In this document: positions 5,055 to 5,093 of the stretch, piece by piece | Position numbering within the stretch: the first letter of the stretch is position 1 | Layout: every line of letters starts with the position of its first letter | Sequence record: PV340576.1 | Direction: 5' to 3' (one strand) | DNA length: 49,669 nucleotides | Source: Escherichia phage PhiR68_2 | Translations under genes and position numbers: made by a program | Notes under the pieces: model-generated | What the model was told of the DNA's origin: nothing | The model's input: only the letters and a program-made list of their open reading frames with translations | Database searches by the model: none

Positions 5055-5093
5055 TATCAATACTTATTGCTATTAGTTGATGTGTTTTGATAT
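5055..5093. promoter_or_regulatory. leftward operator cluster (oL-like): two 14-bp sites ATAGCTATTGCTAT (5055..5068) and ATACTTATTGCTAT (5080..5093), 25 bp centre-to-centre
   Basis: Same 14-bp family (ATAsnn-nT-nGCTAT) recurs three times between cI and cro; location at left edge of immunity region. Confidence 0.6.

Follow-up and report, generated by a model that had tools for sequence, protein, structure and literature searches.

A four-site array at the left edge of the immunity region of Escherichia phage PhiR68_2 as the probable left operator of a lambdoid prophage

The sequence of Escherichia phage PhiR68_2 (accession no. PV340576.1; the whole stretch of 49,669 bp that was analysed is called the window below) was found to be that of a lambda-like phage related to the Escherichia phages PhiR70_1, 4A7 (Bievrevirus), and Perceval. 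Its immunity region contains a two-gene moron and a cI gene encoding a repressor with a helix-turn-helix (HTH) domain and an S24 peptidase domain, and these genes are bracketed by two clusters of 14-bp sites of one family, four at 5035..5117 (oL) on the far side of the region and three at 7481..7544 (oR), with a divergent cro gene next to the latter (Table 1). A sequence-only reading of this DNA had proposed that a pair of sites forms the oL analogue and brackets the immunity region together with oR, and this bracketing was found. On the sequence evidence described below, the two sites very probably belong to the left operator of a lambdoid prophage, as its oL1 and oL2.

Both 14-mers of the pair are present, but they had been placed at 5055..5068 and 5080..5093, which is 20 bp too high. 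Their start-to-start spacing of 25 bp was given correctly, as was their membership of the same 14-bp family as ATACGCATTGCTAT and ACACGTTTTGCTAT in oR, which are also 25 bp apart. The second of the two intervals coincides by chance with a third, weaker site, ATGTGTTTTGATAT. Rather than a pair, an array of four sites was detected at offsets 0, +25, +45, and +69 (25, 20, and 24 bp from centre to centre), in which sites 3 and 4 are located upstream of the pL promoter candidate and site 4 is inverted. The sites have the form ATA(C/G)nnnTTGCTAT, a 14-bp pseudo-palindrome in which conservation is much higher in the right half, TTGCTAT, than in the left one.

Table 1. Coordinates of the oL, pL, and oR features and of neighbouring genes in the window (a dot marks features without a strand).
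Feature	Position	Strand	Description
oL1	5035..5048	.	ATAGCTATTGCTAT; near-palindromic 14-mer, exact match to ATANNNNTTGCTAT, overlaps pL -10
oL2	5060..5073	.	ATACTTATTGCTAT; adjoins pL -35 with 1-bp overlap
oL3 (probable, weaker)	5080..5093	.	ATGTGTTTTGATAT; 2 mismatches to the pattern
oL4 (inverted)	5104..5117	.	minus strand ATTCTTTTTGCTAT; 1 mismatch to the pattern
pL (candidate)	5032..5060	-	-35 TTGATA (5060..5055), 17-bp spacer, -10 TATTAT (5037..5032)
Putative pL leader, ~187 nt	4839..5025	-	from the list of open reading frames; followed by kil
kil	4548..4838	-	match to phrog_294
Terminator hairpin	5207..5228	- (scores on + too)	ends the cI-moron transcription unit
Two-gene moron	5227..6682	-	between cI and oL
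Hydrophobic protein, 149 aa	5227..5676	-	~4 hydrophobic segments, read by eye; RexB is 144 aa
RexA-fold protein, 341 aa	5657..6682	-	AlphaFold2 model and fold search
cI repressor, 230 aa	6776..7468	-	Pfam HTH_3 and Peptidase_S24; recognition helix QPTIWR
oR3	7481..7494	.	ATACGCTTGCGTAT; perfect palindrome, between pRM -35 and -10; 18.1 bits
oR2	7506..7519	.	ACACGTTTTGCTAT; just upstream of pRM -35, adjoins pR -35
oR1	7531..7544	.	ATACGCATTGCTAT; overlaps pR -10
pRM	-35 7504..7499; -10 7481..7476	-	TTGACC, 17 bp, TAAATT; ends 8 bp upstream of the cI start codon (ATG, 7468)
pR (putative)	-35 7519..7524; -10 7542..7547	+	TTGCTT, TATTAT; both assigned by eye
cro, 75 aa	7579..7806	+	YdaS/Cro-type HTH; recognition helix QPTVWR

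The sites are not randomly distributed in the window. The degenerate pattern ATANNNNTTGCTAT showed only three exact matches in the 49,669 bp, each of them in oL or oR. When one mismatch was allowed, 11 matches were found compared to 3.0 +/- 2.0 in dinucleotide shuffles (at least 11 in 0 of 100 shuffles), and seven of these 11 fell in oL or oR. The heptamer TTGCTAT occurs eight times on both strands of the 49.7 kb, with five copies within the oL and oR regions. Using a weight matrix built from the oR sites only, oL2 was the top match outside oR (20.1 bits), and oL4 scored 13.9 bits. A similarity that arose by chance or as a by-product of AT-rich promoter DNA, with no operator function, would agree with the only moderate scores of some sites with this matrix and with the resemblance of the pL -35 hexamer TTGATA to a half-site, which makes an overlapping pseudo-match at 5054..5067. 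Such an origin is nevertheless very unlikely in view of the confinement of the exact-pattern matches to oL and oR and, as shown below, the co-variation of the sites with the repressor helix, the linkage of the same helix to the site pair in IMG/VR loci, the spacing kept in a Klebsiella phage without a blastn alignment, and the footprint pattern. The pseudo-match at 5054..5067 was also considered as a separate operator and was rejected; it is best explained as the -35 hexamer itself.

The best sigma-70-like match in positions 1..8000 (10 of 12 consensus positions; a consensus match only) lies on the minus strand directly over the first two sites. oL1 spans its -10 element and spacer, and oL2 begins at the last base of its -35 element. 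This candidate pL reads away from cI toward kil, gam, bet, and exo, which agrees with the leftward promoter that had been proposed, and its transcription would start near 5025. A similarly placed promoter was found on the minus strand of Salmonella phage BTP1 (TTGATA-17-TATTGT) and in Klebsiella phage ST11-VIM1phi8.2, hereafter phi8.2 (TTGCTA-17-TATTAT), in both cases overlapping sites 1 and 2 as in the window. We also considered that the main role of the repressor-bound sites is to anchor a loop to oR from a distance, with fine-tuning of pRM and pR and no control of a promoter at oL. The distance of about 2.5 kb to oR, as in lambda, the location of oL3 and oL4 upstream of any promoter element, and the fact that pL is called from a consensus match would all fit such an anchor, but it is improbable, as no other promoter match in the region is as strong, three phage lineages share its overlap with oL1 and oL2, and the entire leftward early operon would otherwise be without a promoter.

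The putative pL leader hardly varied among 82 distinct relatives covering both immunity types, and because these are almost identical, covariation analysis of the leader was ruled out. Its predicted fold was no better than that of shuffled sequences (z = -0.46). An Rfam search of 4000..9000 in E-value mode gave no leader or nut-site match, with only sub-threshold hits to isrJ and PrrF that were driven by the terminator hairpin. An antiterminator RNA resembling the put sites of HK022 was rejected as a candidate, as the leader showed no similarity to the HK022 pL region.

On the right side of the immunity region, the three oR sites are spaced at 25 and 25 bp, and oR2 is located between the two -35 elements of pR and pRM. 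The pRM promoter places the start of cI nearly leaderless. pR is a prediction from sequence that falls below the threshold of the promoter scan. The two outward promoters are organized alike, since in both pL and pR the final three bases of operator 1 are the initial three of the -10 element. Among the relatives, oR3 was invariant except for one position. In addition, two overlapping weak matches to the pattern, ATTGGTATTGCAAT and ATTCCTATTGGTAT (minus strand), were observed at 7554..7573, downstream of the putative pR start and by the cro ribosome-binding site; they are only partly conserved in BTP1 and may be due to chance or may represent a Cro-specific site.

The closest solved relative of the N-terminal domain of cI is the DNA-binding domain of the 434 repressor (E 2e-5, residues 6-66). 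The 434 repressor uses 14-bp operators with the consensus ACAAnnnnnnTTGT. The cI translation contains an Ala-Gly pair (EVSAGPG), GDSM, and VKRL, motifs typical of LexA-like self-cleavage. The recognition helix of cI (QPTIWR) is nearly the same as that of Cro (QPTVWR), as expected if both proteins bind the same sites. On the protein level, cI showed 86% identity to the cI proteins of BTP1 and Salmonella phage ST104 and 82% to that of phi8.2. Over residues 18-58, a stretch that contains the HTH, the proteins of BTP1 and ST104 show no difference, and that of phi8.2 differs at two positions outside QPTIWR. HK022 immunity, as suggested by the annotation of ST104, was rejected: cI is only 40% identical to the HK022 protein, and the HK022 oR repeats are of the TGAAC...GTTCA type. 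The gene in the cII position (7831..8376) matches YdaT (PF06254, E 8e-30), and judged from these matches cro (YdaS) and YdaT form an early-right module like that of the Rac prophage rather than a lambda CII arrangement.

TTGCTAT might be a direct repeat with asymmetric recognition, either by only Cro or by some other phage protein, and not part of a 14-bp palindrome bound by a cI dimer; the far better conservation of the right half and the common orientation of oL1-3 and oR1-2 are in line with this. We consider it unlikely, however, since oL1 and oR3 are near-perfect 14-bp palindromes, oL4 is inverted, and the recognition helix is common to cI and Cro. Besides, the repressor combines a 434-like N-terminal domain with a C-terminal S24 domain of the lambda/LexA type, a kind of domain through which those repressors dimerise, and a sister immunity type carries clear 14-bp palindromes in the same register.

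This sister type was found in the phages PhiR26_1, PhiR5_1, and Turner, which have the same left flank (to ~5025), the same right flank (from ~5121), and the same cI C-terminal domain as the window. Their recognition helices differ (cI QAAIQK, Cro QQAVYK), and in both oL and oR their sites are replaced in register by 14-bp palindromes of the ACAACnnnnGTTGT type, with AAAACTATAGTTGT opposite oL1 and ACAACAAAAGTTGT opposite oL2. The sister sites are spaced at 24 bp in oL and at 24 and 23 bp in oR. Thus, the operator sequence tracks the recognition helix of the repressor. The ACAACnnnnGTTGT operators have 434-like outer bases, and in PhiR26_1 they are located at 4197..4234 (oL) and 5707..5767 (oR). 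A scan of IMG/VR anchored on the shared flank detected these two types of cassette and no others beside it, in 108 and 63 loci. The exact site pair was present in 120 IMG/VR loci, and in 95 of these a cI N-terminal domain with QPTIWR was found 0.7-2.7 kb away; 18 of the 25 pair loci without such a cI extend less than 2.2 kb beyond the pair.

The layout of the array was also conserved in other phages. The four sites at 0, +25, +45, and +69 were found in 4A7, BTP1, and phi8.2, and three of the four were seen at the same stringency in ST104. The oL of phi8.2 was not retrieved by blastn and is therefore an independent replicate of the layout. The +45 offset of oL3 is shared by 4A7, BTP1, and the Klebsiella phage, and oL4 is kept at +69/+70 in these three and in ST104. 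In a footprint analysis of 55 distinct relatives, 0.73 minor alleles per position were found within the four sites vs 4.42 in the spacers. oL1 and oL4 were nearly invariant, and the low variation includes sites 3 and 4, neither of which had been used for ascertainment; the pattern in oR was alike. Of 5426 complete E. coli genomes, 506 (~9%) contained the oL block, in each case without annotation.

Several observations weigh against an operator of this kind. The 20.1 bits of oL2 equal the top score among 30 shuffles searched with the oR-derived matrix, oL1 reached just 10 bits with it, and oL3 was not among its top matches, so that oL3 is called from its conservation and its conserved offset only. 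The left half-site is degenerate and keeps only ATA and C/G, and most sites can be read as TTGCTAT direct repeats. The footprint set was partly ascertained with the operator pattern itself; a subset selected by the flank only showed the same trend, but it consisted of just 10 distinct sequences. On the right side, the -35 element of pR is weak and was assigned by eye. Finally, no N-like open reading frame of at least 32 aa was listed on the minus strand in 4839..5025, unlike in lambda; the lack of an N gene and nutL after pL is a real difference from lambda, though neither is required for an operator.

Taken with these points, we still favour the left operator of a lambdoid prophage, which would work as follows. 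Dimers of cI, with their 434-like HTH and LexA-like S24 domains, would bind the ATA(C/G)nnnTTGCTAT pseudo-palindromes. Occupation of oL1 over the -10 element and spacer of pL and of oL2 at its -35 element would exclude RNA polymerase and keep kil-gam-bet-exo silent in the lysogen. The further sites, oL3 and oL4, probably add pairwise cooperativity and let the array join oR in a loop of ~2.5 kb. After SOS-induced self-cleavage of cI, pL and pR would fire, and Cro, with almost the recognition helix of cI, would be expected on the same sites after induction.

A broader interpretation is less probable. According to this, oL would be a conserved four-site array, arranged as two pairs, in phages from E. 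coli to those of Salmonella and Klebsiella, and specificity would be a split module, consisting of the ~95-bp oL block on one side and the cI N-terminal domain, oR, and cro on the other, which would be exchanged together despite the highly variable 0.7-2.6 kb defence-gene slot between them.

In the window, this slot holds the two-gene moron. Neither of its proteins gave matches in Pfam, PADLOC, or PHROGs, and BLASTP showed no similarity to lambda RexA or RexB. For the AlphaFold2 model of the 341-aa protein (mean predicted local distance difference test, pLDDT, 79.8), lambda RexA (8twq) was the top PDB match by both fold-search methods (Foldseek E 4.9e-4, probability 0.99, with a TM-score of only ~0.3), and RdgC was also present in both lists. 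The description of the operon as Rex-like is thus borne out by fold and gene architecture but not by sequence. The gene pair recurs in unrelated Klebsiella and Actinobacillus prophages and was present in 42 E. coli genomes; it was absent from 50,697 phage records. Other cargo was found in the slot of related phages: bstA in BTP1, a HipA/HipD pair in PhiR5_1, GevT/GevA in PhiR47_2, and a ParA-like gene in phi8.2. The interval between oL and cI is a defence or moron hotspot, with one half of the immunity module on each side. In BTP1, transcriptomics has shown that cI and the downstream bstA moron form one operon with a single start, and the interval from cI to N is known as a site or hotspot for morons like rexAB (PMC7067206).

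The location of the sites just outside the terminator of this operon, as proposed, is approximate, since 134 bp separate the hairpin from the end of the second site, and 90 bp from the end of the fourth. It has a T-rich tail on each side and may act bidirectionally, between the cI-moron unit and any rightward transcription from the oL side. The oL block and this hairpin are separated by an 85-bp non-coding segment (5121..5206; GTGACTTGCATCGCATAGCGATAAC...), whose conservation extends over E. coli phages of both immunity types but not to BTP1 or ST104; the short open reading frames in it look spurious.

Compared to lambda, a similar organization was found: two operator clusters about 2.4-2.5 kb apart (OL1-OR1 2.4 kb in lambda, oL1-oR1 2.5 kb here) bracket cI and a moron expressed in the lysogen, an outward early promoter has site 1 over its -10 and site 2 beside its -35, OR2 is just upstream of the PRM -35 with OR3 inside PRM, the start of cI is almost leaderless, and the repressor has a self-cleaving S24 domain. 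The annotated spacings in lambda are 24 and 20 bp in OL and 24 and 23 bp in OR, vs 25, 20, and 24 bp and 25 and 25 bp, respectively, in the window. In contrast to lambda, the operators are of 14 bp rather than 17 bp and unrelated in sequence, oL contains four sites instead of three, N and nutL are missing after pL, cro is of the YdaS type with a YdaT-family protein in the cII position, and the moron has no sequence similarity to rexAB.

With phage 434, the window shares a recognition helix common to cI and Cro and probably the 14-bp unit with conserved outer bases and a variable centre, for which oL1, oR3, the sister palindromes, and the 434-like N-terminal domain speak, and the sister cassette of the PhiR26_1 type even uses ACAACnnnnGTTGT. 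The helix differs, however (QPTIWR here vs QQSIEQ in 434), and the two half-sites are unequal, TTGCTAT being much the stronger. With ATA(C/G)...(G/C)TAT in place of ACAA...TTGT as outer bases, the specificity is different from 434 immunity.

The immunity type is instead that of a group of P22-like Salmonella phages (ST104, SE1, ST160, and BTP1), with which the window shares the operator family and the cI recognition region. BTP1 also has the same four-site oL offsets, pL geometry, and moron slot downstream of cI (bstA). These Salmonella phages are podoviruses in which pL is followed by an N/gene-24 antiterminator, whereas the window is a lambda-like phage or prophage without one. ST104 was listed by Villafane et al. 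as having its own distinct, unstudied repressor specificity (PMC2629481). We found no published description of the operators of the ST104/BTP1 type in the literature, and the BTP1 paper (PMC7067206) does not discuss operators.

This locus is very probably a lambdoid left operator-promoter of the ordinary kind, from a common immunity type; mildly unusual features are limited to the layout with four sites and the proposed specificity module, which would be split and co-exchanged. The mechanism of the lambda paradigm is unchanged. If the inverted fourth site has a distinct role, for example in loop geometry or in the control of read-through from the moron, the array would be a variant of the long-range switch of lambda. 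The operator code ATA(C/G)nnnTTGCTAT and the layout of pL, pR, and pRM are now defined from sequence for this immunity type, which is also that of the clinically relevant Salmonella prophage BTP1, and phages of this type are predicted to be homoimmune with each other. Together with the naturally swapped sister cassette, the type makes up a pair of probably orthogonal repressor/operator sets, which, under the broader interpretation, would be a convenient natural pair of cassettes.
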